Part shown: positions 35,836 to 56,900 of the stretch, in pieces
Position numbering within the stretch: the stretch's first letter is position 1
How the letters are laid out: each line of letters opens with the position of its first letter
Origin: Candidatus Multivoradales bacterium
GTDB taxonomy: Bacteria > Acidobacteriota > Thermoanaerobaculia > Multivoradales > JAHEKO01
NCBI GenBank assembly: GCA_965223155.1
Contig: CBDCVR010000014.1
Location: 704,001 to 768,000 of the forward strand
Direction: 5' to 3'
DNA: 64,000 nt
Translations under genes and position numbers: made by a program
Notes under the pieces: model-generated
What the model saw: only the letters and a program-made list of their open reading frames with translations
Databases searched by the model: none
What the model was told of the DNA's origin: nothing

Positions 35836-35976
35836 GGCCGGGATTGTGCCACAGCAGATTCCTGGCTTGCCTCTTGCAGCCGATTCCCTTCGGCCGGCCG
35901 GCCCGCGAGTCCGGCTGCCGCAGGAAGCTACAATGCGCGGGCGGCATCCGCCACTCGCCCGCCGAGGAACCCTCCA

Positions 35977-40600: not shown

Positions 40601-41018
40601 CTTCGGTGTAATCCCCCAGGACGAGCGCAAGGTGTCTCGAATCGGGCGCCCAGCTGTACTTGTAGACGCCGGTCATCGCAAACTGCTGGGTGCCTGTCTC
40701 CGAATCGAGGACTCTAAGATGGTCCAGACCCTCGACAAACGAAACGAACTGGCCGTCCGGTGAAATACCAGGACGCTTGATGCCGTCCTCGGTGCACCGC
40801 CAGAACACTTCGGGCGGCTCCCCTGGTCGTTGCTGATAAAGCACACTGCGCTCGAAGGCCGCATCTTCGGGGACGAGCTGTTGGGATACCTCGGTCGGAA
40901 TTGCGACTCCGAAGCCAACCACTGGGCTCCATTCTGAGGGCCAGGCCGACGCGCAACTGCCCAGGGCAATGAGGAAATAGGCGGCGTAACCTTGCCTTTG
41001 TCGGGAATTCTGCATCAT
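37668..41018 (-). CDS. Cassette 1 gene B1: signal peptide + beta-propeller + NBR1-like Ig + 4 Ig domains + conserved C-terminal tandem domains (candidate immunity/partner)
   Basis: ISPDGQFVSF, WAPDSRHLA and LSPDGTYY are propeller-type motifs; C..W....D.G.Y.C Ig signature occurs 4 times; ATGA overlap with the A1 stop. Confidence 0.8.
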   Translation of the reverse strand: MMQNSRQRQGYAAYFLIALGSCASAWPSEWSPVVGFGVAIPTEVSQQLVPEDAAFERSVLYQQRPGEPPEVFWRCTEDGIKRPGISPDGQFVSFVEGLDHLRVLDSETGTQQFAMTGVYKYSWAPDSRHLALVLGDYTEEGFINRQTAVVTIDGWVVEAMLDGGDEVLWESGGTLVVRPLYESDVRLERDSGGVWSPSTDLSPHLDGLSPDGTYYLETGLFEGFGGVFSAATGENLVETLAVFEDGRLYPLWDEGGWWWVDDSKIAVRGSVKAYRDTTYVIDLAADRAVMVPAFLFWAGDGTVVLATNAILSLHSGEALLLESQEVASRDSAQISIGPVPPVLECGTDYTFTVSFLNDGTSIWTLEEGYKLRASVWNATHDPIFVEADLGAVGPVPPGGTVTVDIPYAIPAEPTRVRVNADSSAGFNSNMGTEGTERTVLCNGAAPPADNEHAPVLTYQPVDQTVLAGQSVSLTCDYYSDHPAYVCWWRDSVSLCDEGIPGAETPVLTIDSVSSGDAGVYSCKVSNEFGEAISAPAELTVAVRPHLTEGPAPQAVSEGSSVSLSCLAAGTKPLAYSWHKDGQAIVDGGRVTGASTQALTISNAVGSDSGQYSCRVANDWGEAISAQALVSVGSAPIVTTSPASVSTLVGTSATFSCSASGTEPLSYEWLRNGVELVDGARVTGSATPSVTVSSLVASDAGGYACRVANGFGEAVSASASLVIGNPPQVTSQPAPATAIAGGEASFSCAATGDGTLSYLWQKDGADLADDASIEGAATTQLTIRNVDASSAGTYRCLASSDYGQALSDPAALTFEAWRAYPVATVSSNWTSSEPVHDQLDDPTNFVTSRMTAGTSMSDALTVRMAPMGDPDTDLGHEIHVRARALDNAPVTLRVHLMRGSTSLTYQNLEFGFEESVAVVAIPPEAATNLEDYGDVQIKVVKFHEITGNNSDRRAELFEVEFRVPEVSAPVQRVAAVGTTATNSFSPTPVHEQVDDLTNVVTSSVSAGTSDSFTLAMASMTDPGTDEGHVLRVRGRALDNEPVRIRIVLLQGGTTLKYWGRDLYFQESTMRVAIPASVASGLTDYSDVRVRIVKFNELWNENNRRAEINWIELEAPLP

Positions 41019-44000
41019 GGGTCACATTTCAGCTCAAGAGCTGTCTGCGGTTGCCGGAAACCGATATGTAAGTGATGGTGGTGCTGGTCGTTCTCGTATT
41101 TGTAGACGCCGTCTGGAAAGATTGGACAGATGTCTTTGAGTCTGCTGCGGTCGTCGACGATGACCTTTCTTATCAAGCCGCCTGGTGAGTTCTTCTGGAG
41201 GAGGGTCAGGAATAGGCAGGTTGCCTCCGGGTCGAACACCTGATCAGCGTATCGCCAGTCGAACGAAAAACTCTTCTCGTTCGTGTTCTTGAAGTACCTC
41301 ATGTCAATGTCCAGTCCATTCTGGTGGTCGAAGTGGGGGGGGGCCGAACCTCCACGTATCTTGCTAAGGTCGTTGAACATCGGCCGAATCTCACCGACGA
41401 AGTCCGTATCAGTGGGGACCGTTGGGTTGTCGAAGCCCTCGGCGGTGGCCGTGATCCATTTGATAACTGACCACGCACAGCTGTAGTCCTCTTCTTCCCA
41501 GCCGCCGTAGCGACCCCAGTGCTCGCTGGTGCCGAGTGCTGAGGAATTCACCAGGCATCCATTGCTACGGGTGCCGATGTGGTGGCAGGCGGTGCAGGAG
41601 CCGCTGACATGGGGACCGAGGTCCACTCCCGTGTCGAAGGGCGAGAACCCCGTGCCGGAGGCGCTGGCGAAAAGCCGCGTTTCGGTACTTCCGCCGGCAC
41701 AGCCACATCTTTGGGGCAACTGCACCTGGACCGTGCGGCGTCCGGTACGCGGGGGCCACTCGGGATCGCCCTCGATGATGGTCACGTCGACGACTCGGAC
41801 GCATTCGTCTTCGGTCCCAACCGACAAGGCATTCAGCTCGCCACTGGGCTCGGTTTCGTTTTCAAACGTTGGCCCTTCGAAGCCATAGCACCAGAGACCC
41901 GAAATCGACCAGCCTCTTACTAGCGGTATCGTTCCCCGGGTTTCGTAGTTGGCGCAGATCTCGAGATCGATCGCAAACTCGAAGACATTGTCACTGTTGA
42001 ACGGATCGATTAGAACGCAGCCTACGAGAGACCCTTCGATCTCGAGTCGTGCAATGACGTGAAGTACATTGAGTTCGAGGAACTTCTCGGCCCCGGGTAG
42101 CAGACTGACGACTTCCGACGGCGCCATGTCCGCAAGCGACTCCAGGTCCTTCCATAGAGTCTGGGACTCGTCAAAGTCCAAGATGTTGTATCGGTAGTTC
42201 TTGGAGTAGCAGCCACTCAAGATACTTCCGGTAGGGAGCGTGACGTCCGGCTGGAGCAATGTCTCCGTAGGTCTTGGGGCCTGAAGCCGAACGCCTGTGC
42301 CGCCGATGAGCGTCTCGGCGACCGATGCCGTTGCCGTACTGCCACCTACCGTCAGCGGCAGCCGAACGCTGCCTTCGGAAGTGGTCACAACCAGTTCGGA
42401 GGCTCCCAAAGATGCTCCGTGGGTAACAGCAAGCGTTGCAAGGACCCCGTTCGGAGCGGTTCTGACGCTGTGAAACCGAAGGCCGCTCCCGCTCACCGAA
42501 AGCGTTGCACCCGAGAGATTCGCGCCGGCGATCTGAAGGAGGTACTGTCGGCCGCGCGCCACTTCACTGGGCGTGTACGAGTCAACCACAGGTCCCTTTG
42601 GAAGGATTCTCACGAGAGCGAAGTCGATACCTCCGTCGGTTGCGACAGCGAGGGCCTTGAAGCCGACGTCTGCGGACCGTGCGTCGATATCTAAGGTCAG
42701 CTGACTCGCAGAAGAAGAAACCGACGCCACCGAGGGCAGCCCTTTGTTGGCACCACCCGGGAGCCCGAACGAGACATCGGCACCTTGGAGATTTCCACCG
42801 GACAGGGTCGTCCGGGTAACCGCACCTTGGGGCACGACGATCAAAGCATCTGTCAGAGTTGGTGATCCGGCAGTCGGATTCGTGACTTGGATTGCGGAAG
42901 CGTCGAGCTCGCCAAAGCGGGTCCCGCTCGTAGTTTCCATTTGCCAACGGACAGAGTAGTAGCCAGGGACCGCTGAGCCGGGGATCGTGACCTCGAAGAC
43001 GAACGAGTGCGAGCCAGATTCGTCGATCTGTGCACCTGCCGGCAGCTCCACGCTCGCCGGAAAAAAGTCGAGGTCGGTGTCGACGGCCAGCCGATGGGTG
43101 CCGGCCTGCCAAGTCGAGGTACCGTTGTTGGCAACACTTACTGAGATCGTATGGGTCGAACCGAGTGCCATCGGAGACGGAACGTTGGCCGAGACGATGT
43201 CGGCGTCGTTGGCTCCCGTCTGGCAGGTCACCTCGATGGGATGAGAGACGACGCCGCCGAACCAGGCGACGCCCTCGTTGACCATCTGCCACTCCGTCCC
43301 ATAGCTTCCGGGCTGCGACGGCGCGGTCAAGGCGACCGAGAACGAATGCTGGGATTGCGGGGCGATCGAGGCGCTTGTGGGCAGCTGAACCCGAGTCGCA
43401 TCGGCCCGGAACGGGTCGCTTCCTCCCGTCGGGCCTAGTTTGTAGCCGTCCGCCCGTGTCCAGACCGTGTCGCCCGTGTTCTTCATCGTGACGGCATAGG
43501 TCCCCACTTCGCCACAGGCCATCTGCGACGGCAAGTTGTGACCAACAGCCTGGGCAGCGTCTTGACAGGTCACGGTGATGGTCTTCGAGACCTTCTCGCC
43601 GAACCACTGCCCGTTCTCGACCATCTGCCACTCAGTGGTGAGAGTCGTTGCCGTCTCGGGCGCTACCAGCGAGACGTCGAAGGTGTGGGAGTCGTTCTCT
43701 TCGATCGCGAGGCTCGCCGGCAGGTGGACCCGGGCGCCGCTCGGGTTGAAGGGATCGGTATCCCCGGGAACCCCCAGTTGATGACCGCCGGCAGCGGTCC
43801 AGGGCTTCGAGCCGCCGTTGCGAAGCGTTATCTCACGAACCAGGGTCGAGCCGCAGGTCATGGAATCGGGCAGGGTGTCCGAGACCCGGGTGGCAGCGTT
43901 GACGCAATCAACGTCGATCCTGGCAGTCACGAGCGGGCCAAAAGGCTCGCCGTTGTGCTCCATCTGCCAGAGGGTCATGACGTCGTTCTGGTGGGTGTCG

Positions 44001-44752
44001 CTCGGGGCCTGGAGGGGAACCTTGAAAGGGTACTGGCCTCCGCCGCGACCGACCGTGACATTGCTCGGCAAGCGCACCGGAGCGCCGGACGGGTTGAACG
44101 CGTCGCTCGTGCCCACGTTGGCGAGATAGAACCCAGCCGCGTCGGTCCAGTCGGTCGAGCCCATGTTCTGGAGCGTCACCGTGGCTTCGTCTTCCGAAGA
44201 GCAGTTCATCGCCGCCGGGAACACCTCGGCGGCGAGGACCGCGTGATCCCCACAGACGACGTTGATGTCCTTGAAGACGATCGAACCGAACCATTCGACC
44301 CCCTGCTCGGCCATCTGCCACTCCGTGCGCACGACGCCGTGGACGTCCGGGGCGGTCAACTCGACGGTGAACGTGTGCCGCTGTCCCGGAGCGATGGTCG
44401 TGCCTACGGGGAGCCGGACCTTGTTGCCGTTCGGCCGAAACGGATCGTCGTTGTCCGTGACCCCGAGCCGGTGCCCGTTCGTACCGTCCTCGGTCCAGTC
44501 GCCCGTACCGACGTTCTCGAGCCGAATCGTGAACGACTCGGTGTCGCCGCAGTACATCGCGTCCGGCAGGTTCTGCGAGACGACAAGAGCATCATTGACG
44601 TCGGCGCCGACCGGCGGATCCTCTGGCCCCGGGTCGGGCTCCTGGGCGGTGGCGACCGCGGCTGCCGCGAGCACGGCTGCGCAGGCTCGCCCGATTCTTC
44701 GGTATCGGCGGGAGGGGCTAGCCTTCTGTCGTCCCATCCCAACCCACTCCAT
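41015..44752 (-). CDS. Cassette 1 gene A1: secreted NBR1-like Ig-repeat protein with C-terminal MepA-like metallopeptidase (candidate polymorphic toxin)
   Basis: Signal peptide; five N.G...W / WQM....FG repeats; C-terminal DLS...GG, HFDHQNGLDIDMR and HHHHLH match the MepA/M74 LAS peptidase pattern. Confidence 0.8.
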   Translation of the reverse strand: MEWVGMGRQKASPSRRYRRIGRACAAVLAAAAVATAQEPDPGPEDPPVGADVNDALVVSQNLPDAMYCGDTESFTIRLENVGTGDWTEDGTNGHRLGVTDNDDPFRPNGNKVRLPVGTTIAPGQRHTFTVELTAPDVHGVVRTEWQMAEQGVEWFGSIVFKDINVVCGDHAVLAAEVFPAAMNCSSEDEATVTLQNMGSTDWTDAAGFYLANVGTSDAFNPSGAPVRLPSNVTVGRGGGQYPFKVPLQAPSDTHQNDVMTLWQMEHNGEPFGPLVTARIDVDCVNAATRVSDTLPDSMTCGSTLVREITLRNGGSKPWTAAGGHQLGVPGDTDPFNPSGARVHLPASLAIEENDSHTFDVSLVAPETATTLTTEWQMVENGQWFGEKVSKTITVTCQDAAQAVGHNLPSQMACGEVGTYAVTMKNTGDTVWTRADGYKLGPTGGSDPFRADATRVQLPTSASIAPQSQHSFSVALTAPSQPGSYGTEWQMVNEGVAWFGGVVSHPIEVTCQTGANDADIVSANVPSPMALGSTHTISVSVANNGTSTWQAGTHRLAVDTDLDFFPASVELPAGAQIDESGSHSFVFEVTIPGSAVPGYYSVRWQMETTSGTRFGELDASAIQVTNPTAGSPTLTDALIVVPQGAVTRTTLSGGNLQGADVSFGLPGGANKGLPSVASVSSSASQLTLDIDARSADVGFKALAVATDGGIDFALVRILPKGPVVDSYTPSEVARGRQYLLQIAGANLSGATLSVSGSGLRFHSVRTAPNGVLATLAVTHGASLGASELVVTTSEGSVRLPLTVGGSTATASVAETLIGGTGVRLQAPRPTETLLQPDVTLPTGSILSGCYSKNYRYNILDFDESQTLWKDLESLADMAPSEVVSLLPGAEKFLELNVLHVIARLEIEGSLVGCVLIDPFNSDNVFEFAIDLEICANYETRGTIPLVRGWSISGLWCYGFEGPTFENETEPSGELNALSVGTEDECVRVVDVTIIEGDPEWPPRTGRRTVQVQLPQRCGCAGGSTETRLFASASGTGFSPFDTGVDLGPHVSGSCTACHHIGTRSNGCLVNSSALGTSEHWGRYGGWEEEDYSCAWSVIKWITATAEGFDNPTVPTDTDFVGEIRPMFNDLSKIRGGSAPPHFDHQNGLDIDMRYFKNTNEKSFSFDWRYADQVFDPEATCLFLTLLQKNSPGGLIRKVIVDDRSRLKDICPIFPDGVYKYENDQHHHHLHIGFRQPQTALELKCDP

Positions 44753-44868
44753 CGTTGGTCACGGGCTGGAATGCGTTGGCGGACGACGACTCGCGGCTCA
44801 GAAAGCCCTGAGAGCGACGGGCTCGCGCCGCCGGAGAACCGACACAACCATTACCAACCACGGAACAC

Positions 44869-44897
44869 AGGGTAGTGGCAACCGTTGTGATTCGCAA
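44869..44897 (-). promoter_or_regulatory. Putative sigma70 promoter, cassette 1
   Basis: TTGCGA-N17-TACCCT; the boxes are conserved in the diverged cassette 3 copy. Confidence 0.55.
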
Positions 44898-45025
44898 GTC
44901 AATTTCAAGGCGAAGCCCCAAACGGCCCGACATCCTGAAGCCGAATCGGATGGGGTGAAGACAGGTCGAGCCCGAAACGGCGGCCCTTCCTAGCGCCGTA
45001 TTCGACCGGCGGCGGCCGGGCCGCC

Positions 45026-45922
45026 CGAGCATCGCAAGCGGTGGACCTCTTGCTGGGCCGCGTCGAAAGCCGACCGGACGCCGTTTTGCAGCTCGGGCTC
45101 GCCCAGTATCAGAGCGGCGACCTGGACGGGGCGCTGGCTACCCTCGAGCCGGCCGCGGCGGCGCTGCTGGCTCGCCTCCAAGCCGGTCAGCCCGCCGGCG
45201 AATACCCCACGGCTCTCCTCATCGAGTACGGCCGCTTCCTGGTTCTGGGCGGCCGCCATGCCGAAGCGCTCCCCTATCTCGAGACCGCTACCAAGGTGGT
45301 CCCGGACAGGAAGCAGGGCTGGCAGCAGCTAGGTCAAGCCCTGGCCGCGGTCGGCCGCCGGGACGAGGCGCGAGCCGCCCTCGACCAGTTCCAGAGCATC
45401 GTCCAGAACGAGGTTCCCGGATCGCTACGCAACATCCGGCTCAAGGGCGGCTTTGAAGATCCCGTCGATCGCGAGCTCCGCCGCGCGTACCTGCTCATGC
45501 TCCAGGATCAAGGCGCCGAAGCGCTCGAGATCGTGCAACGGGAGGCTCGCCTGGCGCCCGAGGATCCCCGACCCCGCTTGCTCGAAGCCCGCATCTATCT
45601 CGCCCAAGAGGACTTCGACGCCGCGGCGGCCGCCGCCGAGGCTCTCGTCGCTGGACTTCCGGGTAACGCAGACGCCCTCTACATCCGCGGCACCACGCGC
45701 ATGGCGCGGCAGGACATGGAGGGCGCCGAGAGCGACCTGCGCAACGCCCTCGAGCTCCATCCCGAGCACACCGCCGCCCTCAACGACCTGGCCGTCCTGC
45801 TCATGGACACCGACCGGGGCCAGGAAGCTCGCGGCCTCCTGGAACGAGCGCTCGAGATCCGTCCCGACGACACCCTCGCGCGCGAGAACCTGAACAAGCT
45901 CGACGCCGGCGGCTCGGGCTAG
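45026..45922 (+). pseudogene. 3' half of the TPR gene (5'-truncated copy 2)
   Basis: Matches ~36775-37671 (RASQAVDLLLG...KLDAGGSG) with mostly synonymous changes; lacks the signal peptide and N-terminal half; frame intact from GTG 45041. Confidence 0.75.
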
Positions 45923-48840
45923 GGCAGCGGGGCTTCGAGTTCGATCCAGTTGATCTCGGCGCGCCGGTTGCTCTCGTTCCAGAGCTCATTGAACTTGACG
46001 ATCCGAACGCGCACGTCCGAGTAGTCAGTCAAGCCCGAGGCCACCGAGGCCGGGATCGCAACCCGCACCGTCGACTCCTCGAAGTCGAGATCGCGGCCCC
46101 AGTACTTGAGGGTCGTACCGCCCTGGAGCAGCATGATCCGAATCCGGACCGGCTCGTTATCGAGCGCCCGGCCGCGGACCCGAAGGACATGGCCTTCGTC
46201 GGTCCCGGGATCCGTCATCGAGGCCATCGCAAGGGTGAATGAGTCCGAGGTGCCGGCCGAGACCGAGGAGGTGACGACGTTCGTCAGATCATCGACCTGC
46301 TCGTGAACGGGTGTCGGCGAGAAGGAGTTGGTCGCGGTCGTACCGACAGCGGCCACCCGCTGGACCGGAGCGGAAACCTCGGGAACCCGAAACTCGACCT
46401 CTACGAGCTCGGCCCGGCGGTCCGAGTTGTTGCCCGAGATCTCATGGAACTTGACCACCTTGATCTGGACGTCGCCGTAGTCTTCGAGATTCGTGGCGGC
46501 TTCGGGAGGTATGGCGACTACCGCGACCGACTCCTCGAAGCCGAACTCCAGGTTCTGGTAGGTCAGCGAGGTGCTTCCCCGCATCAGGTGCACGCGCAAG
46601 GTCACCGGGGCGTTGTCGAGCGCCCGGGCCCGGACGTGGATCTCGTGCCCGAGATCGGTATCCGGGTCGCTCATCGGGGCCATGCGGACCGTCAGAGCGT
46701 CGCTCAGGCTGGTGCCGGCGGTCATGCGGGAGGTCACCACGGTGGTGGGATCGTCGAGCTGGTCATGGACCGGCTCCGAGGAGATCCAGTTCGAGCTCAG
46801 GGTCTCGACCGGATAAGCGCGCCAAGACTCGAAGTCGAGGGCCGCCGGATCCGACAGGGCTTGTCCGTAGTCGCTCGAAGCCAGGCACCGGTAGGTGCCC
46901 GCGCTCGAGGCGTCGACGTTCCGAATCGTAACCTGGGCAGTCGCGGCGCCTTCGATGCTGGCATCATCGGCCAGATCCGCGCCGTCTTTCTGCCACTGAT
47001 ACGAGAGGGTGCCATCGCCCGTTGCCGCGCACGAGAAGCTCGCCTCTCCGCCGGCGATCGCCGTCGCCGGGGCCGGCTGGCTCGTCACCTGCGGCGGGTT
47101 TCCGATAACGAGACTCGCCGAGGCCGACACGGCCTCGCCAAAGCCGTTCGCCACCCGGCAGGCATACCCGCCGGCATCGGACGCGACCAGACTCGAAACC
47201 GTCACGCTCGGAGTCGCTGAGCCCGTCACCCGGGCTCCATCCACGAGCTCGACACCGTTCCGCAGCCATTGGTAGGCGAGTGGCTCTGTCCCCGAGGCCG
47301 AGCAGGAAAACGTGGCGTTGGCGCCGATCGCGGACTCCACCGACGCCGGTTCGCCGGCGATCGCCGGAGGGTCGCCGACGGTCAGTTGCGCTGGGACCGA
47401 CTCCGCGGAGCCCCAGTCGTTGCTTACGTGGCACCGATAGCTGCCCGAGTGATCCGCGGCGACGGCCGCGAACTGAAGAGACGGAGAGGCGGTGCCCGAC
47501 AGAGTCGCGGTGTCCGAAAGCGCGGCATCGTCTTTCGTCCAGGTGAAGGCTAGCGGTCCGGTGCCCGTGGCGGTGCAAGCGAGAGTGAAGCTGGAACCGG
47601 TGGCGACTGAAGCTGCGGCCGGGCCGGCCGTAATCGACGGCGCACTACCCACCCGAACGAGTGCCGGATTCGAGGTGATGATCCCCCACTCGTTGGACAC
47701 GCCACACACGTACTCTCCGGCGTCTTCGCTCTGGACGGACTGGATGGTCAAGGTCGCCGTCGCGGTGCCCTGGAGCGTTGCTCCCGTGCCAGACGGGCCG
47801 TCCTCGAGGGCGACGCCGTCCTTGACCCAGTGATAGGTCAACGGCTCGCCGCCGGAAGCCGAGCAGGACAGGAGCCCCGTGGACCCTACGACCGCGTTGA
47901 TGGACGCCGGGTGGGTGACGATCTCGGGGTGCTTCTCGAAGCGCTCGATGCGTCCCAAGGCGGAGGAGGCTTGGGCGCGGACCTCTCCGATAGAGCTGCT
48001 TGCGATCAGGTCTCGCAGAGCCGCCTTGGTCTCCTCGTCGGCGATGCCGATGTCTCCAAGGGCTTGCGCCGCCCTGATCCGATGGCTGCTCTCAGGGTCG
48101 CTGAGCTCGGCGCGGAGAGCGTCGAGGACCTCCTGCGGTGGTTCGGGTACCGGGCCTTCGAGCGACGGCCTCCGGAACATCTGGCCCAGGGCGGTAACCG
48201 CCGCGTAGTCGGTCCGATCGTCGGCGCAGCGCAGGACGAGCTCGCCGACGACCAGTGCGTCCCGAGGCCGGATCGCCGCCAGGGCGAGGGCGGCCGGCTT
48301 CAAGACGGATTCGTCCGTCTCGATTTCGAGAACGGCCGCGATCGGCGCAAACGCGTCGACGGAAAGACCCGGCCAGTTCGCGAGGGCATAGAACAGGGTC
48401 TCTCTAACGCCAGCATCCGGGTCCGACAGGTAAGCGGTTACGTCCTCAAGATGCGAGTCAAGCTTCACCAGATTGGAAGGAGCATGCGTTGCCTGCATCT
48501 CACTGGCGCCGTAGAACACCGGACCCTTGTTCAGCATGATGGCCTTGTAGAAACCATGGGCGGCGGCGCCTCTGACGGCCGGATCCGGATCCTCCATCAG
48601 AGACGCGACGAGCGTCCAGGTTTCTTCATAGTGGTCCAGCCAGTAGGCGAAGATCTCCTCGTCCATGGCAGCCAGGCCGGCTAGGCGCGTCTCAGGATCG
48701 TCGGAAGCAAACGCGATCGCGATCGTCTCAACGAGATCGGTGGCCGAGCCCCAAACTGGGTTGCACGTCAGGCTAGCCACAATGATGGATCCGACCGCGA
48801 GGACTCGAGTCACCGAAAGGCGGACGGTCATTCGGAACAT
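45919..48840 (-). CDS. Cassette 2 gene B2: signal peptide + HEAT repeats + 4 Ig domains + conserved C-terminus
   Basis: DPDPAVRGAAA, DPDAGVRE, RIRAAQALGDIG and VRAQASSALG are HEAT-like. The C-terminal ~460 aa nearly match B1/B3. Start is ATG 48840 or 48831 (ATGA overlap with A2). Confidence 0.8.
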   Translation of the reverse strand: MFRMTVRLSVTRVLAVGSIIVASLTCNPVWGSATDLVETIAIAFASDDPETRLAGLAAMDEEIFAYWLDHYEETWTLVASLMEDPDPAVRGAAAHGFYKAIMLNKGPVFYGASEMQATHAPSNLVKLDSHLEDVTAYLSDPDAGVRETLFYALANWPGLSVDAFAPIAAVLEIETDESVLKPAALALAAIRPRDALVVGELVLRCADDRTDYAAVTALGQMFRRPSLEGPVPEPPQEVLDALRAELSDPESSHRIRAAQALGDIGIADEETKAALRDLIASSSIGEVRAQASSALGRIERFEKHPEIVTHPASINAVVGSTGLLSCSASGGEPLTYHWVKDGVALEDGPSGTGATLQGTATATLTIQSVQSEDAGEYVCGVSNEWGIITSNPALVRVGSAPSITAGPAAASVATGSSFTLACTATGTGPLAFTWTKDDAALSDTATLSGTASPSLQFAAVAADHSGSYRCHVSNDWGSAESVPAQLTVGDPPAIAGEPASVESAIGANATFSCSASGTEPLAYQWLRNGVELVDGARVTGSATPSVTVSSLVASDAGGYACRVANGFGEAVSASASLVIGNPPQVTSQPAPATAIAGGEASFSCAATGDGTLSYQWQKDGADLADDASIEGAATAQVTIRNVDASSAGTYRCLASSDYGQALSDPAALDFESWRAYPVETLSSNWISSEPVHDQLDDPTTVVTSRMTAGTSLSDALTVRMAPMSDPDTDLGHEIHVRARALDNAPVTLRVHLMRGSTSLTYQNLEFGFEESVAVVAIPPEAATNLEDYGDVQIKVVKFHEISGNNSDRRAELVEVEFRVPEVSAPVQRVAAVGTTATNSFSPTPVHEQVDDLTNVVTSSVSAGTSDSFTLAMASMTDPGTDEGHVLRVRGRALDNEPVRIRIMLLQGGTTLKYWGRDLDFEESTVRVAIPASVASGLTDYSDVRVRIVKFNELWNESNRRAEINWIELEAPLP

Positions 48841-51800
48841 GGGATCGTCCCTTCTATGCGGCCGGTGACTACTTCCCGGGTGCGGTTTGCTAGGCACCTG
48901 AAGAACTCAAGGGGTGGGATCGTCGCCGGACGGGTCGCGGGATAGTGATGGACAAGTTCGTCTGCTACGTAGACCTCGTGTGCCGGGACACAGTCATGCT
49001 GACCCTCGAGGGCCCAGGTCAGAGAGCCGTCTGCATTGCGGCGCAGGGTCATATCGTAGTAGTAGCGGATCGGCGGAGCGAAGAACAACAAGGGATCGCT
49101 GGCTTCTCCGCTGATTCTCAGCGCTAGCAATCCCCCGGCCGACACCTCAGATTTCACCTGCATCTGTCCGATGTCAGCGCGGCCGTGGCGGTTGAAAAGG
49201 TAGCAGTCCCTCTCCTTGTTATCGTAGTCGCCTCCGTTCTCGGGCAGCCGAAAATCGACGCGTCCGTCGCCCTCCAGAGTCGAATCCTTGTGAAACTCCA
49301 TTGTCGGGCCGGCGGAAGGGAAGTTCGCGACGTGAAAGTCGGAAGAGTCAAGATCGACTCGAATGATCTGCTGGGTTCGGTACTTTTCCTTTCGGGTCGG
49401 ATGATTCGTCCCCGGGTGCTCCGGAAGCCCAACCGTTACCGGATCGCTTTCCAGCCATCGGTCATCTCCAGTGTGGATCGTGGTCTGAGGGACAGGCAGG
49501 ATAGGTGGCGTACACAGACCGACTCCGACCGGCAGATCCACATAGTTCGTCGGGATGAAGGTCCTGATCTCGATCTCCACCTCTTCGCCGGTACAGGACG
49601 TGGCACAGGTGACGTGGGTGTCCGCGACGTCCTCGTCCCCGGTGTCGAAGTCCGTAAAGCCGCTGCCGATGGCGCGGGCGCTGAGGACGCCGTCTCGGGG
49701 AGCGCTCTGCTGGCAGCCGCACTCCCTGGGAATGGCGACTTCCACCCGCTTGACGCCGGTGGGCGGACGGTTGGGATCTTCAGGTTCTCCATCCACGATC
49801 GAGATCTCGACAACCTTGACACAGGCATCGCTGTGGCGCACGGAGAAGGACTCCATGTCTCCGGTGGGCTCGGTCTCGGTCGGAGGCTCTTCGCGCTGGA
49901 CTCCGAAACACCATTCCTTGGTGAACATGTAGCCCCGCACCAGCGGGATCGTGATGCGGGCTTCCGCCCGGATGCAGAGATCGATGTTGTAGCCCCACTC
50001 GAAGGTCCCGGTGAGCGGTTCAAAGAAGACGCAGACGACGACGGCCCCCTCGACCTCGATCCGGGCATGGGTCTGCAGAACGGTCGCGTCAAGAACCCGT
50101 CCGATCTCGGGAACAAGATTGACCACATCGCCGGGCAGAACCGCGGCCGCCGTCTGCAGGTCCTCGAGAATCAGTTGCGTCGAAGTGTGATTGATGACGT
50201 TGTAGCGGAAGTTCTTGTCGTAGCAACCCGCGAAGAAGGCGTTTTCCGGAATCGTCGATTTGGGATTCGTAAAGTCCCCGTAGGTCGCGGGCGTCTGGAA
50301 GCGTGCGCCTCCGAGGGTCCGAGTCGCCGGAGAGCCACCGGACAAAGATGCAAGCACGCGGAGCGGAAGGCTGACGGAGCCGGCCGACGTCATGACCGAC
50401 AGTTCGCGCTCGCCGGTCGACGCGTCATCCTCCACGGACAGGACAGCCGATATCCCATTGGTTTCGGCGTGGACCGAGTGGAGCTGAATGCCAGAGCTGG
50501 AAGTGGAAATCGAGCCGCCACCTAGATTCGCACCAACGATGTGAAGCACGTAGGTCTCACCTCGGGCGACCTCGCTCGGTGTGTAGGTGTCCACCACCGG
50601 TCCGGGAGCAAGGACGCGGACGAGTGCCGACTCAACGCCACCGGCGGTCTCGATCGTCAGGACATGAAAGCCGGTCTCGGTCGCCCCTCGAGTATCGACG
50701 TCGAAGGCCAGCTGCTGGCCGGACGAAGTCACGGCGCTGGCGAGGGGAGTGCTCGCCGGATCGCCGGTCGCCGGCCGGGCAAAGGAGACCTCGGCGCCCG
50801 AGAGGCCCGATCCCGTGAGACTGGCGCGCGTCACCGCTCCCAGGGGCACGACGATGAGCTCGGAGTCAACCATCGGCAGGGCAGTGGACGGATCGACGAC
50901 CTTGACCACAGTGCTCTCGGTCTCGCCGAACGCGTCTCCGCTCACCGTCTCCATCTGCCACTGGATGACTTGGTTGCCTAGCGTTGCCGTCGTCGGGATC
51001 GTGACCTCGAAGACGAACGAGTGCGAACCAGATTCGTCGATCTGTGCACCTGCCGGCAGCTCCACGCTCGCCGGGAAGAAGTCGAGGTCGGCGTCGACGG
51101 CCAGCCGATGGGTGCCGGCCTGCCAAGTCGAGGTGCCGTTGTTGGCAACACTTACTGAGATCGTATGGGTCGAGCCGAGTGCCATCGGAGACGGAACGTT
51201 GGCCGAGACGATGTCGGCGTCGTTGGCCCCCGTCTGGCAGGTCACCTCGATGGGATGAGAGACGACGACGCCGAACCAGCCGACGCCCTCGTTGACCATC
51301 TGCCATTCCGTCACATAGCTTCCGGGCTGCGACGGCGCGGTCAAGGCGACCGAGAACGAATGCTGGGATTGCGGGGCGATCGAGGCGCTTGTGGGCAGCT
51401 GAACCCGAGTCGCATCGGCCCGGAACGGGTCGCTTCCTCCCGTCGGGCCTAGTTTGTAGCCGTCCGCCCGTGTCCAGACCGTGTCGCCCGTGTTCTTCAT
51501 CGTGACGGCATAGGTCCCCACTTCGCCACAGGCCATCTGCGACGGCAAGTTGTGGGCCAAGGCCTCTGCACCGTCCTGACAGGTCACGGTGATGGTCTTT
51601 GAGACCTTCTCGCCGAACCACTGCCCGTTCTCGACCATCTGCCACTCGGTGGTGAGAGTCGTTGCCGTCTCGGGCGCAACCAGCGAGACGTCAAAGGTGT
51701 GGGAGCCGTTCTCTTCGATCGCGAGGCTCGCCGGCAGGTGGACCCGGGCGCCGCTCGGGTTGAAGGGATCGCTGTCTCCGGTGACGCCCAATTGATGACC

Positions 51801-52766
51801 GCCGGCAGCGGTCCAGGGTTTCGAGCCGCCGTTGCGAAGCGTCACCTCGCGCACCAGGGTCGAGCCGCAGGTCATCACATCCGGCAGAGTGTCCGAGACC
51901 CGGGTCGCGCCGTTGACGCAATCGACGTCGATCCTGGCAGTCACCAGCGGGCCGAAGGGTTCGCCGTTGTGCTCCATCTGCCAGAGGGTCATGACGTCGT
52001 TCTGGTGGGTGTCGCTCGGGGCCTGGAGGGGAACCTTGAAAGGGTACTGGCCTCCGCCGCGACCGACCGTGACATTGCTCGGCAAGCGCACCGGAGCGCC
52101 GGACGGATTGAAGGCGTCGCTCGTGCCCACGTTGGCGAGATAGAACCCAGCCGCGTCGGTCCAGTCGGTCGAGCCCATGTTCTGGAGCGTCACCGTGGCT
52201 TCGTCTTCCGAAGAGCAGTTCATCGCCGCCGGGAACGCCTCGGCGGCGAGGACCGCGTGATCCCCACAGACGACGTTGATGTCCTTGAAGACGATCGAAC
52301 CGAACCATTCGACCCCCTGCTCGGCCATCTGCCACTCCGTGCGCACGACGCCGTGGACGTCCGGGGCGGTCAACTCGACGGTGAACGTGTGCCGCTGTCC
52401 CGGAGCGATGGTCGTGCCTACGGGGAGCCGGACCTTGTTGCCGTTCGGCCGAAACGGATCGTCGTTGTCCGTGACCCCGAGCCGGTGCCCGTTCGTACCG
52501 TCCTCGGTCCAGTCGCCCGTACCGACGTTCTCGAGCCGAATCGTGAACGACTCGGTGTCGCCGCAGTACATCGCGTCCGGCAGGTTCTGCGAGACGACAA
52601 GAGCATCATTGACGTCGGCGCCGACCGGCGGATCCTCTGGCCCCGGGTCGGGCTCCTGGGCGGTGGCGACCGCGGCTGCCGCGAGCACGGCTGCGCAGGC
52701 TCGCCCGATTCTTCGGTATCGGCGGGAGGGGCTAGCCTTCTGTCGTCCCATCCCAACCCACTCCAT
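48828..52766 (-). CDS. Cassette 2 gene A2: secreted NBR1-like Ig-repeat protein with C-terminal DUF3238-like domain
   Basis: First ~590 aa nearly identical to A1/A3; middle homologous but diverged; last ~250 aa unrelated, with TFIP, GDDR, YRTQQ, ASDPL..APPI.Y and GQHDCVPAHEVY resembling DUF3238 from memory. Confidence 0.75.
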   Translation of the reverse strand: MEWVGMGRQKASPSRRYRRIGRACAAVLAAAAVATAQEPDPGPEDPPVGADVNDALVVSQNLPDAMYCGDTESFTIRLENVGTGDWTEDGTNGHRLGVTDNDDPFRPNGNKVRLPVGTTIAPGQRHTFTVELTAPDVHGVVRTEWQMAEQGVEWFGSIVFKDINVVCGDHAVLAAEAFPAAMNCSSEDEATVTLQNMGSTDWTDAAGFYLANVGTSDAFNPSGAPVRLPSNVTVGRGGGQYPFKVPLQAPSDTHQNDVMTLWQMEHNGEPFGPLVTARIDVDCVNGATRVSDTLPDVMTCGSTLVREVTLRNGGSKPWTAAGGHQLGVTGDSDPFNPSGARVHLPASLAIEENGSHTFDVSLVAPETATTLTTEWQMVENGQWFGEKVSKTITVTCQDGAEALAHNLPSQMACGEVGTYAVTMKNTGDTVWTRADGYKLGPTGGSDPFRADATRVQLPTSASIAPQSQHSFSVALTAPSQPGSYVTEWQMVNEGVGWFGVVVSHPIEVTCQTGANDADIVSANVPSPMALGSTHTISVSVANNGTSTWQAGTHRLAVDADLDFFPASVELPAGAQIDESGSHSFVFEVTIPTTATLGNQVIQWQMETVSGDAFGETESTVVKVVDPSTALPMVDSELIVVPLGAVTRASLTGSGLSGAEVSFARPATGDPASTPLASAVTSSGQQLAFDVDTRGATETGFHVLTIETAGGVESALVRVLAPGPVVDTYTPSEVARGETYVLHIVGANLGGGSISTSSSGIQLHSVHAETNGISAVLSVEDDASTGERELSVMTSAGSVSLPLRVLASLSGGSPATRTLGGARFQTPATYGDFTNPKSTIPENAFFAGCYDKNFRYNVINHTSTQLILEDLQTAAAVLPGDVVNLVPEIGRVLDATVLQTHARIEVEGAVVVCVFFEPLTGTFEWGYNIDLCIRAEARITIPLVRGYMFTKEWCFGVQREEPPTETEPTGDMESFSVRHSDACVKVVEISIVDGEPEDPNRPPTGVKRVEVAIPRECGCQQSAPRDGVLSARAIGSGFTDFDTGDEDVADTHVTCATSCTGEEVEIEIRTFIPTNYVDLPVGVGLCTPPILPVPQTTIHTGDDRWLESDPVTVGLPEHPGTNHPTRKEKYRTQQIIRVDLDSSDFHVANFPSAGPTMEFHKDSTLEGDGRVDFRLPENGGDYDNKERDCYLFNRHGRADIGQMQVKSEVSAGGLLALRISGEASDPLLFFAPPIRYYYDMTLRRNADGSLTWALEGQHDCVPAHEVYVADELVHHYPATRPATIPPLEFFRCLANRTREVVTGRIEGTIPCSE

Positions 52767-52882
52767 CGTTGGTCACGGGCTGGAATGCGTTGGCGGACGA
52801 CGACTCGCGGCTCAGAAAGCCCTGAGAGCGACGGGCTCGCGCCGCCGGAGAACCGACACAACCATTACCAACCACGGAACAC

Positions 52883-52911
52883 AGGGTAGTGGCAACCGTT
52901 GTGATTCGCAA
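52883..52911 (-). promoter_or_regulatory. Putative sigma70 promoter, cassette 2
   Basis: Identical to 44869-44897. Confidence 0.55.
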
Positions 52912-53039
52912 GTCAATTTCAAGGCGAAGCCCCAAACGGCCCGACATCCTGAAGCCGAATCGGATGGGGTGAAGACAGGTCGAGCCCGAAACGGCGGCCC
53001 TTCCTAGCGCCGTATTCGACCGGCGGCGGCCGGGCCGCC

Positions 53040-53936
53040 CGAGCATCGCAAGCGGTGGACCTCTTGCTGGGCCGCGTCGAAAGCCGACCGGACGCCGTTT
53101 TGCAGCTCGGGCTCGCCCAGTATCAGAGCGGCGACCTGGACGGGGCGCTGGCTACCCTCGAGCCGGCCGCGGCGGCGCTGCTGGCTCGCCTCCAAGCCGG
53201 TCAGCCCGCCGGCGAATACCCCACGGCTCTCCTCATCGAGTACGGCCGCTTCCTGGTTCTGGGCGGCCGCCATGCCGAAGCGCTCCCCTATCTCGAGACC
53301 GCTACCAAGGTGGTCCCGGACAGGAAGCAGGGCTGGCAGCAGCTAGGTCAAGCCCTGGCCGCGGTCGGCCGCCGGGACGAGGCGCGAGCCGCCCTCGACC
53401 AGTTCCAGAGCATCGTCCAGAACGAGGTTCCCGGATCGCTACGCAACATCCGGCTCAAGGGCGGCTTTGAAGATCCCGTCGATCGCGAGCTCCGCCGCGC
53501 GTACCTGCTCATGCTCCAGGATCAAGGCGCCGAAGCGCTCGAGATCGTGCAACGGGAGGCTCGCCTGGCGCCCGAGGATCCCCGACCCCGCTTGCTCGAA
53601 GCCCGCATCTATCTCGCCCAAGAGGACTTCGACGCCGCGGCGGCCGCCGCCGAGGCTCTCGTCGCTGGACTTCCGGGTAACGCAGACGCCCTCTACATCC
53701 GCGGCACCACGCGCATGGCGCGGCAGGACATGGAGGGCGCCGAGAGCGACCTGCGCAACGCCCTCGAGCTCCATCCCGAGCACACCGCCGCCCTCAACGA
53801 CCTGGCCGTCCTGCTCATGGACACCGACCGGGGCCAGGAAGCTCGCGGCCTCCTGGAACGAGCGCTCGAGATCCGTCCCGACGACACCCTCGCGCGCGAG
53901 AACCTGAACAAGCTCGACGCCGGCGGCTCGGGCTAG
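53040..53936 (+). pseudogene. 3' half of the TPR gene (5'-truncated copy 3)
   Basis: Translation identical to 45041-45922; offset 8014. Confidence 0.75.
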
Positions 53937-56900
53937 GGCAGCGGGGCTTCGAGTTCGATCCAGTTGATCTCGGCGCGCCGGTTGCTCTCGTTCCAGAGCT
54001 CATTGAACTTGACGATCCGAACGCGCACGTCCGAGTAGTCAGTCAAGCCCGAGGCCACCGAGGCCGGGATCGCAACCCGCACCGTCGACTCCTCGAAGTC
54101 GAGATCGCGGCCCCAGTACTTGAGGGTCGTACCGCCCTGGAGCAGCATGATCCGAATCCGGACCGGCTCGTTATCGAGCGCCCGGCCGCGGACCCGAAGG
54201 ACATGGCCTTCGTCGGTCCCGGGATCCGTCATCGAGGCCATCGCAAGGGTGAATGAGTCCGAGGTGCCGGCCGAGACCGAGGAGGTGACGACGTTCGTCA
54301 GATCATCGACCTGCTCGTGAACGGGTGTCGGCGAGAAGGAGTTGGTCGCGGTCGTACCGACAGCGGCCACCCGCTGGACCGGAGCGGAAACCTCGGGAAC
54401 CCGAAACTCGACCTCTACGAGCTCGGCCCGGCGGTCCGAGTTGTTGCCCGAGATCTCATGGAACTTGACCACCTTGATCTGGACGTCGCCGTAGTCTTCG
54501 AGATTCGTGGCGGCTTCGGGAGGTATGGCGACTACCGCGACCGACTCCTCGAAGCCGAACTCGAGGTTCTGGTAGGTCAGCGAGGTGCTTCCCCGCATCA
54601 GGTGCACGCGCAAGGTCACCGGGGCGTTGTCGAGCGCCCGGGCCCGGACGTGGATCTCGTGCCCGAGATCGGTATCCGGGTCGCTCATCGGGGCCATGCG
54701 GACCGTCAGAGCGTCGCTCAGGCTGGTGCCGGCGGTCATGCGGGAGGTCACCACGGTGGTGGGATCGTCGAGCTGGTCATGGACCGGCTCCGAGGAGATC
54801 CAGTTCGAGCTCAGGGTCTCGACCGGATAAGCGCGCCAAGACTCGAAGTCGAGGGCCGCCGGATCCGACAGGGCTTGTCCGTAGTCGCTCGAAGCCAGGC
54901 ACCGGTAGGTGCCCGCGCTCGAGGCGTCGACGTTCCGAATCGTAACCTGGGCAGTCGCGGCGCCTTCGATGCTGGCATCATCGGCCAGATCCGCGCCGTC
55001 TTTCTGCCACTGATACGAGAGGGTGCCATCGCCCGTTGCCGCGCACGAGAAGCTCGCCTCTCCGCCGGCGATCGCCGTCGCCGGGGCCGGCTGGCTCGTC
55101 ACCTGCGGCGGGTTTCCAATGACGAGACTCGCGGAAACGGACGTCACCTCGCCAAAGCCGTTCGCCACCCGGCAGGAATACCCGCCCGCATCGGACGCGA
55201 CCAGACTCGACACCGTCACGCTCGGAGTCGCTGAGCCCGTCACTCGGGCGCCATCCACGAGCTCGACGCCATTCCGCAACCATTGGTAGGCGAGCGGCTC
55301 CGAGCCCGAGGCCGAGCAGGAAAACGTGGCGCTCGTGCCGACAAGGGTCGAGACGCTTGCGGGACTTGTGGTGACAATTGGCGCTGACCCGACCGAGACC
55401 AAGGCCTGGGCCGAGATCGCCTCGCCCCAGTCGTTGGCGACGCGGCAGCTGTACTGTCCGGAATCGCTCCCAACTGCGTTGGAGATCGTCAAGGCTTGAG
55501 TCGAAGCGCCCGTGACACGGCCGCCGTCCACAATCGCCTGCCCGTCTTTGTGCCAGGAGTAGGCCAAAGGCTCCGTCCCGGCTGCGAGGCAGGACAACGA
55601 AACGGAGGAACCTTCGGACACAGCCTGAGGTGCCGGCCCTTCGGTCAGATGCGGCCGAACGGCGACGGTAAGCTCTGCGGGAGCCGAGATAGCTTCGCCA
55701 AACTCGTTCGAGACCTTGCACGAATACGCCCCGGCATCGCCGCTGGAAACCGAGTCGATTGTCAGCACAGGGGTCTCGGCTCCCGGAATGCCCTCGTCGC
55801 ACAGCGACACGCTGTCCCGCCACCAGCAGACGTAGGCGGGATGGTCGCTGTAGTAGTCACAGGTCAGCGAAACCGATTGCCCGGCCAGAACCGTCTGATC
55901 CACCGGCTGGTAGGTCAGCACCGGGGCATGCTCGTTGTCCGCCGGAGGCGCGGCGCCATTGCACAGGACGGTGCGCTCAATTCCCTCCAACTCGGCAAAA
56001 AGGTTCTGGCCGAACACGGCATCAGCTCGTATTGCGACTTTGGCTGGGGCGGCCGGAGTGGTATAGGAGACACTTAAGTTCAAAGTCTCGCCCGGGGAAA
56101 CTGGCCCGAGGGTCGAAAGATCGGCTTCGAGCAAGATAGGGTCGTGCATCGCGCCGTGCACAACCGCGCGAAGCTCATACCCGTCCTCGACTGTCCAAGT
56201 TGACGTGCCGTCGTTCAGGAAAGAAGCAACAAAGTCGTACGTCGTACTGCACTCGAGAACAGCGGGGATCGGCCCGGCTGAAAGTCGCGCGGAATCTCTA
56301 TCCCCGGTTTCCTGGGACGCCGAGAGCAGTGCTTCTGCCGAGTGCGAGTTCAGGATGGCGTTCGTTGCGAGGATGACGTCACCTTCGCCGGCCCAAAACA
56401 GAAAGGCCCGTTCCAGGACGGCGCGGTCAGCCGCGAGATCGATGATGTAGGTCACGTCTCGGTAGGCACTGAGGCTTCCCCGAACCGCGATCTTGGAGTC
56501 GTCAATCCACCACCAGGACTCGTCGCTCCATTCCGGGTAGAGTCGTCCTTCATCGAAGACGGACAGCGTCTCGACGAGATTTTCCCCTGTGGCCCTTTCG
56601 AAGATCCCGTAGAGGCCCGAAGCCCCGCCTTGAACATAGTGAGTCCCTCCTGGTGAGAGTCGGTCAAGGTAAGGGGATTGGTCGGCAGACGGGCTCCAGA
56701 CTGCGTTCGCCTCCCGCTCTAGCCGCATCTCGTCCTCGAACTGGGGATCGTCATAGCGCACAACCAAGGATCCCTCGGGTTCCCAGTGGACTTCAATTCC
56801 GCCCTCGAGAACCGATTCGACGACCCAGCCGTCCGTGGCGACGACTGCCGTTTGGCGGTTCATGAAGCGGTCGCTCTCAGCGTCTTCCCCCAATAAGATC

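Follow-up and report, generated by a model that had tools for sequence, protein, structure and literature searches.

Organization of the A/B gene pairs

The stretch of DNA analysed here (hereafter the window) comprises 64,000 nucleotides (nt) of contig CBDCVR010000014.1, positions 704,001 to 768,000 of the forward strand, in the assembly GCA_965223155.1 of a Candidatus Multivoradales bacterium (Acidobacteriota). As judged from open reading frames (ORFs) and their translations, the right half of the window carries, on the minus strand, three head-to-tail pairs of genes, which we call A and B and refer to as cassettes 1 to 3. The subject of this work is the second cassette, in which a C-terminal domain of A2 (the tip) adjoins an N-terminal domain of B2 (the head). 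An initial annotation, made by a model from the sequence alone, had singled out this segment, proposing that a DUF3238-like tip and a HEAT-repeat partner had been swapped in together and that the tip acts outside the cytoplasm.

A2 (48828-52766, minus strand, as are all the cassette features below) encodes 1312 amino acids (aa), with a signal peptide, NBR1-type immunoglobulin-like (Ig) repeats, a diverged middle part and the DUF3238-like tip. Its residues 1-590 (50997..52766) form a constant part, near-identical in A1, A2 and A3 (DNA identity 0.89-1.0). Residues 591-1056 (49599..50996), the middle and pre-tip region, are a diverged homologue of the same region in A1 and A3 and are 99% identical to a paralogue on contig C15; within them, residues 787-1056 gave no Pfam, PDB-sequence or usable Atlas match. 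The junction sequence TCATSCTG (residues 1051-1058; 49593..49616) is the final stretch common to the three A proteins, and the tip itself (P0007 in our protein set; residues 1057-1312, 256 aa; 48831..49598) is an all-beta domain of the DUF3238 family.

The two genes overlap by 13 nt (48828..48840), the B2 ATG (48840-48838) lying inside the end of A2 and ahead of its TGA stop codon (48830-48828). The longest B2 frame thus has 19 residues at its start that are unlikely to be translated, and B2 is, judging from the overlap, translationally coupled to A2. Counted from this ATG, B2 (45919-48840) encodes 973 aa. Its residues 1-31 (48748..48840) read by eye as a signal peptide, with a charged start and then a hydrophobic run, which agrees with the exported partner of the initial annotation. 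The HEAT-repeat head follows (residues 32-305; 47926..48747), the predicted binder of the A2 tip, and then a constant part (45919..47925) with four I-set Ig domains (Ig_3 194.7 bits, I-set 180.8 bits) and two C-terminal repeats, the DNA of which is about 100% identical to that of B1.

In the flanking cassettes, A1 (57289-61053) and A3 (41015-44752) bear LAS/MepA-like tips at their C-termini, B1 (53933-57301) has a head without recognised family, and B3 (37668-41018) is the third B gene. All A proteins begin with an identical signal-peptide-like start of 37 residues and possess four to five NBR1-type Ig domains (N_BRCA1_IG, 124-130 bits; in A2, 123.6 bits over 4 stretches in Pfam), while the B proteins possess four I-set Ig domains (Ig_3, 187-195 bits). 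The scores of the latter are very strong (E 1e-54 to 1e-58) for an Ig domain type that is better known in animals. B1, B2 and B3 all end in two repeats of ~140 residues each that belong to no family, and the Pfam scan of this C-terminal part (the last 290 aa in B2) gave none. An NCBIfam scan of A1, A2, B1 and B2 returned a weak DUF11-repeat match only.

Tip and head diverge as one module

In protein alignments, A2 is near-identical to A1 and A3 up to residue 590, homologous and diverged over residues 591-1056, and no longer alignable beyond the 'SCT' of TCATSCTG. The DNA comparison of cassette 2 with cassettes 1 and 3 gives a nested pattern: ~100% identity in both flanks, 44-61% at ~51,000-49,600 and ~47,950-47,300, and 12-45%, that is, no real homology, between ~49,600 and ~47,950. 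Both sides of the A2/B2 junction have thus changed together, as the initial annotation had claimed for 47930-49600, and the A2 C-terminus is indeed unrelated to those of A1 and A3 past this point.

Five A/B pairs are present in the genome: the three in the window, one at the end of contig C14 and one on contig C15. The fifth cassette, on C15, has a tip and a head of the cassette-2 type and allows the limits of the variable segment to be drawn more closely. DNA identity between cassettes 2 and 5 falls from 97-100% to ~50% between ~49,560 and ~47,970 and then returns to 90-98%, with sharp breakpoints on both sides, so that we place the swappable module at 47970..49560. At the amino acid level the two cassettes are 95.8% identical over A residues 1-590, 99.1% over A residues 590-1060, 48.4% in the tip, 47.5% in the B head and 93.6% in the B constant part. 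A tip and a head that are 48% and 47.5% identical within flanks of 94-99% show that the two diverge as one module. On this sequence evidence, tip and head form a single 1.6-kb unit, which either diverged far faster than its frame or was replaced as a block.

The pairing of the two parts is regular: LAS-like tips go with non-HEAT heads in cassettes 1, 3 and 4, and DUF3238-like tips go with HEAT heads in cassettes 2 and 5. The paralogues therefore display two of the features by which polymorphic toxins are recognised, namely a variable C-terminal domain on a conserved N-terminal part and a directly downstream gene that co-varies with that domain.

The A2 tip is a DUF3238-family domain

The initial annotation based its DUF3238 call on the motif HDxxPxHEVY, found here as HDCVPAHEVY (A2 residues 1257-1266; 48969..48998). 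Taken alone, the A2 tip matches Pfam DUF3238 (PF11579) at 21.4 bits (E 2.4e-4), just over the gathering cut-off of 21.1 bits, and does so over profile positions 87-157 of 193 only. The whole A2 protein scores 18.0 bits, and a DUF3238 scan of the genome scored 20.9 bits at the A2 tip, or 22 with neighbouring matches in frame. Such values would be compatible with a chance borderline match of an otherwise unrelated orphan domain, the more so as the model spans part of the tip and the whole-protein score falls under the threshold. We nevertheless consider this extremely improbable, given what the relatives of the tip, its structural model and the solved member of the family show.

A search of 1.84 billion representative proteins recovered 113 relatives of the tip at E <= 1e-3; of these, five reach E <= 1e-10 and none reaches E <= 1e-30. 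The top match is P0008 (E 2.6e-17, 35% identity), which pairs a Transglut_core domain with a DUF3238-like tip. Six of the matches (P0012, P0025, P0062, P0100, P0106 and P0115) involve short repeated stretches only and are not counted as family members. The DUF3238 cut-off is itself reached by 41 of the 113 relatives (21/53 and 20/60 in the two parts of the set), and a 70-row profile of the relatives matches PDB 3c5p (BAS0735, 'unknown function') at E 6.1e-16. The AlphaFold2 model of the tip, built on the 70-row alignment, has a predicted local distance difference test (pLDDT) score of 90.2 and a predicted template modelling score of 0.87, and it resembles 3c5p strongly, both by Foldseek (E 1.2e-11) and by VIA (Z 19.6, root-mean-square deviation (rmsd) 3.0, 187 of 194 residues). 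The next-best VIA row is at Z 7.5 only, which leaves the fold without a characterised relative. By profile and model, then, the A2 tip is a DUF3238-family domain of ~220 residues, predicted to be all-beta with two short helices.

The only solved member of the family shares the fold of the A2 tip and a sequence kinship detectable at the profile level. Unlike the tip, however, 3c5p is a free-standing protein of 197 residues, whereas the A2 tip caps an exported Ig-repeat protein of 1312 residues and has a dedicated HEAT partner. A full-text literature search found no mention of DUF3238, PF11579 or BAS0735, and '3C5P' occurred in unrelated uses only.

Conserved residues and paired cysteines

The motifs of the family are FIP, GDxR, R..Q, DxD....DC, NPL and G.HD.FPA.E.Y, the last being the best conserved and corresponding to HDCVPAHEVY in A2. 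Among 87 near-full-length relatives, and in tip numbering, P205 is kept in all 87, followed by D131 (82), D126 and E208 (78 each), R74 and H201 (77 each), D45 (75), D202 (73) and R47 (72). D1101, R1103, R1130, D1182, D1187, H1257, D1258 and E1264 of A2 are candidate active-site residues.

Cysteines are present or absent in pairs: a loop cysteine and C132 are co-present or co-absent in 84/87 relatives, and C203 and C235 in 83/87. Such pairing points to two disulfides, which would fit a location outside the cytoplasm. C1188 (tip C132) was also considered as a catalytic cysteine and dropped, as its co-occurrence with the loop cysteine makes it likelier to be one half of a disulfide.

The HEAT head and HEAT partners in other genomes

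The B2 head matches HEAT_2 at 63.5 bits (cut-off 27.7) and HEAT at 47.3 bits in Pfam, in agreement with the helical, HEAT-like head of the initial annotation. It has the properties of an Imm-HEAT protein in that it consists of HEAT repeats and is encoded directly after A2. HEAT-repeat immunity proteins of this name are a described class in the portions of Zhang et al. 2012 (PMC3482391) considered here, where they are linked to Ntox34 and Tox-REase-7 and where toxins exported by Sec and carried on Ig or transglutaminase stalks also appear.

A motif scan with one genome per species yielded 106 matching stretches, from which 80 loci were taken, 74 of them with a true domain. The domain is C-terminal at 46 of these 74 loci and is followed by at least 150 further residues at the other 28. 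A HEAT protein lies directly downstream on the same strand at 9 of the 74 loci, all nine being among the 46 with a C-terminal domain. Seven of these neighbours were recognised through Pfam and two more (L046, L104) through phmmer, and no other ORF at any of the 80 loci gave a HEAT-like match. The nine loci come from Verrucomicrobiota, Kiritimatiellae, Planctomycetota, Pseudomonadota, a Heliobacteriaceae metagenome-assembled genome and unclassified bacteria; they form about five similarity groups and hence do not represent nine independent events. By eye, a signal-peptide-like start is visible in all seven of the HEAT partners inspected (those of L046 and L104 fell outside this inspection), and two have a C-terminal transmembrane (TM) helix. 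The same pairing is seen again (L013; G015), with a HEAT protein coming after an 881-residue protein that bears a DUF3238 tip. In P0033, a signal peptide, the tip domain (860-1076) and HEAT repeats (1203-1396) are found in one chain.

A predicted complex between tip and head

One complex prediction was made, with the tip alignment set against the head alignment in three runs and with 3 controls. The scores were 0.80, 0.01 and 0.79 (median 0.79), the best control reaching 0.00. The 0.79 mark is attained by 116/157 solved complexes and by 2/215 mismatched pairs, a calibration that is only rough here given that our own alignments were used. The runs share at least 1% of contacts, and the pLDDT of the partner is at least 82. 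The modelled contacts on the head are spaced along the solenoid at helical intervals, and those on the tip take in residues 129-145 and 165-176, which adjoin the conserved D131/C132 and NPL loops. Overall the model supports the binding of the A2 tip by the B2 head.

Comparison of cassettes 2 and 5 suggests that the predicted interface is more variable than the rest of the module. Identity is 12/37 at the tip interface against 110/219 elsewhere in the tip (Fisher p 0.051), and 13/49 at the head interface against 112/225 elsewhere in the head (p 0.004).

Scaffolds that carry the domain

The domain lies at the end of the protein (fewer than 60 residues after it) in 84/92 relatives that hold most of it. 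The scaffolds ahead of it are mostly Ig-like, PKD, cadherin, fn3, lectin or transglutaminase domains. The NCBIfam scan of these scaffolds covered 101 of the 113 relatives, ten longer than 1200 residues being omitted along with P0106 and P0115. In P0068 and P0072, two of the 101, an RHS repeat-associated core ends where the domain starts (TIGR03696, 61.3 and 45.7 bits), and a 360-residue ORF in genome G386 (L015:6581-7660) has the end of an RHS core followed directly by the DUF3238-like domain. The initial annotation had asked whether the same domain caps other toxin scaffolds, and these three proteins answer in the affirmative. In addition, a 340-residue domain protein (L067) is followed by a VgrG gene. 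Reuse of a C-terminal domain on unrelated scaffolds (RHS core, transglutaminase, with the VgrG neighbour in L067) is a further mark of polymorphic toxins.

The G386 locus (C17:2000-17000) is an array of four ORFs, in each of which a DUF4214 or other upstream region leads into an RHS core end, with the C-terminal domain differing from ORF to ORF; the third bears the DUF3238-like domain, and the next is a 212-residue ORF with multiple TM segments.

At the 28 loci with an embedded domain, the proteins are multi-enzyme chains, mostly from Sphingomonadales, Lysobacterales, Nevskia and allies. The 28 segments after the domain hold Peptidase_C70 in 18 cases, Peptidase_C92 in 4, Amidase_2 in 3 and trypsin in 1; the 30 segments scanned before the domain hold Amidase_2 in 7, trypsin in 3 and NlpC_P60 plus C92 in 1. 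At ~20 loci the domain sits amid peptidoglycan amidase and peptidase domains. Chains of 1000-2000 residues (L045, L053, L054, L068, L076, L086, L097, L101, L102 and others, in Sphingomonadales, Lysobacterales, Nevskia and Halieaceae) combine up to three Amidase_2 domains, trypsin-like, Peptidase_C92/NlpC_P60 and Peptidase_C70 domains and the DUF3238-like domain. At 13 or more of these loci the next ORF, of ~330-390 residues, has no Pfam family. These chains look like multi-headed lytic proteins accompanied by a partner of no assigned family.

Within the phylum the domain is rare: it was found in 6/401 genomes, the genome studied here being counted and one match being weak, and was not found in one same-genus genome included in that search. 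A tblastn search with the tip against 72,556 plasmid records gave no match.

LAS-like tips and the heads paired with them

The initial annotation regarded the A1 and A3 tips as peptidoglycan peptidases. What supports this is that H100, D107, H185 and H187 are invariant in the A1, A3 and A4 tips, giving Hx6D and HxH, the zinc-binding motifs which we take to define LAS enzymes. The profile and model evidence is less compelling: Peptidase_M74 scores 18.3 bits for the A1 tip and 22.4 bits for the A3 tip, both under the 25-bit cut-off, and a PDB sequence search with the A1 tip returned chance-level matches only (best E 0.26). The structural model of the LAS-like tip, based on 3 sequences, is poor (pLDDT 50.4); its best VIA match is MepA (1tzp; Z 5.8, rmsd 4.2, 138 residues), with other LAS enzymes at Z 3.2-3.6, and for a model of such low confidence a match at Z 5.8 is compatible with the LAS reading and nothing more. 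We conclude that the A1, A3 and A4 tips are likely LAS-type murein peptidases.

The suggestion that the B1 and B3 heads are propellers, on the other hand, was not confirmed: no Pfam family was matched at E <= 0.01, a PD40 scan of the genome at E <= 1 gave nothing at these heads and reached no better than E 0.7 at the B4 head, and the Atlas lead from the B1 head to PD40 clusters scored 0.84, under the 0.9 level of the tool.

Genomic context

The genome spans 4.0 Mb in 15 contigs and is 98.7% complete. The organism is diderm, with Omp85 in the genome and a TonB-dependent receptor in the window. The fourth cassette (L017, C14:1325377 to the contig end) consists of A4, a 1245-codon frame with a LAS-like tip, and B4, with yet another head, and runs off the contig. 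At C13:33989-42481 there is a single frame of 2831 codons with A-like NBR1-Ig repeats (~30% identity), PKD-like repeats, a central enzyme-like region of ~450 residues and two B-like units of Ig domains plus C-terminal part (36-44% identity). This frame is possibly related to the A/B design, as an unsplit version in which an enzyme takes the place of tip and head.

The full A/B cassette was not found in the 40 related genomes searched, 4 of them of the same genus, where matches were confined to the Ig repeats and parts of the middle region. No relative of the whole A2 protein was found in the genome-contig collection, and when A2 residues 625-1056 were compared with 5.8 billion proteins in a word-indexed search, the C15 paralogue alone came up. 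The RHS core (TIGR03696) has 24 matches in the genome, 23 of them above the cut-off and none within the cassettes. They are partly arrayed, for example at C14:159-182 kb and C15:954-982 kb, a large polymorphic-toxin stock for a 4-Mb genome. A2 itself matched no RHS family at E <= 0.01 (Pfam) or E <= 0.1 (NCBIfam) and is therefore not an RHS toxin by this measure.

The spacers between the cassettes (44753-45925 and 52767-53940; 1173 nt) are 100% identical to each other. Each holds a 327-codon TPR frame on the plus strand. A full TPR gene lies in convergent orientation at 34261-37668, and its 3' end matches the last 900 nt of the spacers with 89.9% identity; the tandem duplication unit, of ~8 kb, therefore took in the tail of this neighbour. 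The remainder of the window (1-37000 and 61271-64000) is dense in exported TPR and FG-GAP/ASPIC-UnbV proteins and also contains two sulfatase-TPR fusions, a DUF3179 protein and the TonB-dependent receptor. No secretion or delivery genes flank the cassettes in the window.

Interpretation and alternative explanations

We lean, by a modest degree, towards the view that cassette 2 is an exported toxin-inhibitor module of the polymorphic-toxin kind, acting outside the cytoplasm. A2 would be an exported effector, with its Sec-type signal peptide and a DUF3238-family tip with putative disulfides, and B2 its cognate exported inhibitor, both set within long constant Ig-repeat scaffolds. The HEAT head would wrap the tip with its inner helices and keep it inactive in the producer, in the way that immunity proteins of colicins and periplasmic immunity proteins of the type VI secretion system work; the tip would be an enzyme that attacks the envelope from the extracytoplasmic side; and B may either present the inhibitor at the cell surface on its Ig stalk or move together with A in a complex. 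The most likely target is peptidoglycan or a nearby envelope component, because the domain fills the slot of a LAS peptidase here and is strung together with amidases and NlpC/P60-type peptidases elsewhere. Binding, which the model supports, is what we infer along with inhibition, toxicity, target, compartment and the role of the B stalk. Extracytoplasmic action, as foreseen in the initial annotation, draws support from the A2 and B2 signal peptides, the cysteine pairs and the signal peptides of the HEAT partners elsewhere, a support that stops short of demonstration.

A number of observations weigh against this reading. No activity is on record for any DUF3238 protein and the fold lacks a characterised relative, so that the words 'enzyme' and 'toxin' rest on context only; the whole-protein DUF3238 score of A2 is, moreover, below the cut-off. 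The majority of scaffolds are adhesin-like (Ig, PKD, cadherin, fn3), RHS being rare (2/101 and one locus). A HEAT partner accompanies only 9/46 genes with a C-terminal domain, the others having different or no recognised neighbours; the 569-residue ORF downstream in L012 is not HEAT-like (hhalign probability 0.3 against the HEAT head), and no signal peptide is apparent in the HEAT neighbour of L013. A toxin and its immunity protein are not usually joined in one chain, as tip and HEAT repeats are in P0033. In the complex prediction, one run of three gave 0.01, and the additional divergence at the interface may simply be due to surface residues evolving faster. Of the 20 most conserved tip positions, only 6 fall in the predicted interface or within 2 residues of it, and the H1257/D1258/E1264 group is outside the confident contacts, so that occlusion of an active site is not demonstrated by the model. 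Immunity alone leaves the B constant part of ~650 residues unexplained, and the analysis did not reveal how A would cross the outer membrane or enter a target.

Alternatively, the tip might serve for binding and not be catalytic at all, with the HEAT head as its receptor, anchoring A to B at the surface much as cohesin receives dockerin. The variable interface would then provide pairing specificity for the assembly of an adhesin complex or for kin recognition. A and B are both long, adhesin-like chains of Ig repeats, the domain occurs mostly on Ig, PKD, cadherin or lectin scaffolds, its fold is a beta sandwich or barrel without enzyme relative, and tip and HEAT repeats are fused in P0033. The presence of the domain amid amidases and peptidases can be turned the same way, as non-catalytic wall-binding beads are common in multi-enzyme lysins, and the complex prediction speaks for binding and is silent on inhibition. 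Docking does not, however, account well for the three proteins in which the domain is the entire payload after the cleavage motif of an RHS core, nor for the relative beside a VgrG gene. In the genome studied here the domain stands in for a tip with intact LAS metal-binding motifs, and the conservation of D45, R47, R74, D126, D131, H201, D202 and E208 in 72-82 of 87 relatives goes beyond what a docking surface usually needs. On balance we consider a docking pair unlikely. The cassettes could also be housekeeping genes, A encoding the cell's own wall-remodelling enzymes and B exported regulators or scaffolds, with both acting on the envelope of the producer. MepA-type LAS peptidases are housekeeping murein endopeptidases, the A1, A3 and A4 tips keep the LAS motifs, and the neighbours of the cassettes (TPR, FG-GAP/ASPIC, sulfatase, TonB-receptor) include no delivery machinery. 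Against this stand the five near-identical frames in which tip-head modules have co-diverged or been swapped, the failure to find a full cassette in the 40 related genomes searched, an A2 middle part matched among 5.8 billion proteins by nothing but a paralogue in its own genome, and the scarcity of the tip domain across the phylum. Such a patchy and fast-diversifying pattern, together with the link to RHS proteins, fits conflict genes better, and we regard a housekeeping role as less probable still than docking.

Relation to known systems

If cassette 2 is an exported toxin-inhibitor module, its closest counterparts are the Sec- or type II secretion system-type polymorphic toxins with Imm-HEAT. 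As far as the portions of PMC3482391 considered here go, these share with A2 the signal peptide, the repeat stalk and the variable C-terminal domain, and with the cassette as a whole the co-varying next gene, the HEAT-repeat partner and the reuse of the domain on RHS and on transglutaminase-plus-Ig stalks. They differ from it, within the same portions of that source, in that the B2 inhibitor is not a small free protein but the N-terminal head of an exported Ig-repeat protein of 973 residues, the remainder of which is constant. With the immunity function placed in the head of a constant B protein, the swapped unit becomes 'toxin tip plus immunity head', set inside two constant genes. RHS/YD-repeat toxins carry the same DUF3238-like payload (P0068, P0072 and L015:6581-7660), whereas A2 has neither RHS repeats nor an RHS core.

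In colicin E-type nuclease/immunity pairs and in the type VI secretion system (T6SS) pairs Tae/Tai and Tse1/Tsi1, the cognate inhibitor is likewise encoded just downstream, and the specificity residues of the interface diverge within constant frames; where the toxin of such a pair acts on the wall, the immunity protein is exported. A2 and B2, however, have no sequence or fold kinship with these proteins, and A2 lacks T6SS or colicin uptake domains.

Significance for the DUF3238 family

A broader proposal, which we advance tentatively and which falls somewhat short of being probable, is that DUF3238 proteins constitute widespread, disulfide-bonded, envelope-acting antibacterial effectors with exported HEAT immunity, and that in the present organism tip and head have been swapped and the inhibitor is displayed at the surface on a stalk, a layout that would be undescribed. 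A structure of a DUF3238 protein has been available since 2008 with no function on record; the present analysis predicts for the family an exported, inhibitor-controlled effector that is probably directed at the wall, and names exported HEAT-repeat proteins, which occur beside the domain in five or more separate lineages, as its likely inhibitor family. The cassettes would also represent an unusual arrangement, in which toxin and immunity are embedded in large constant scaffold genes and swapped as a 1.6-kb unit. Should toxicity and cognate protection hold true, cassettes 2 and 5 would offer a natural pair for following the evolution of specificity.

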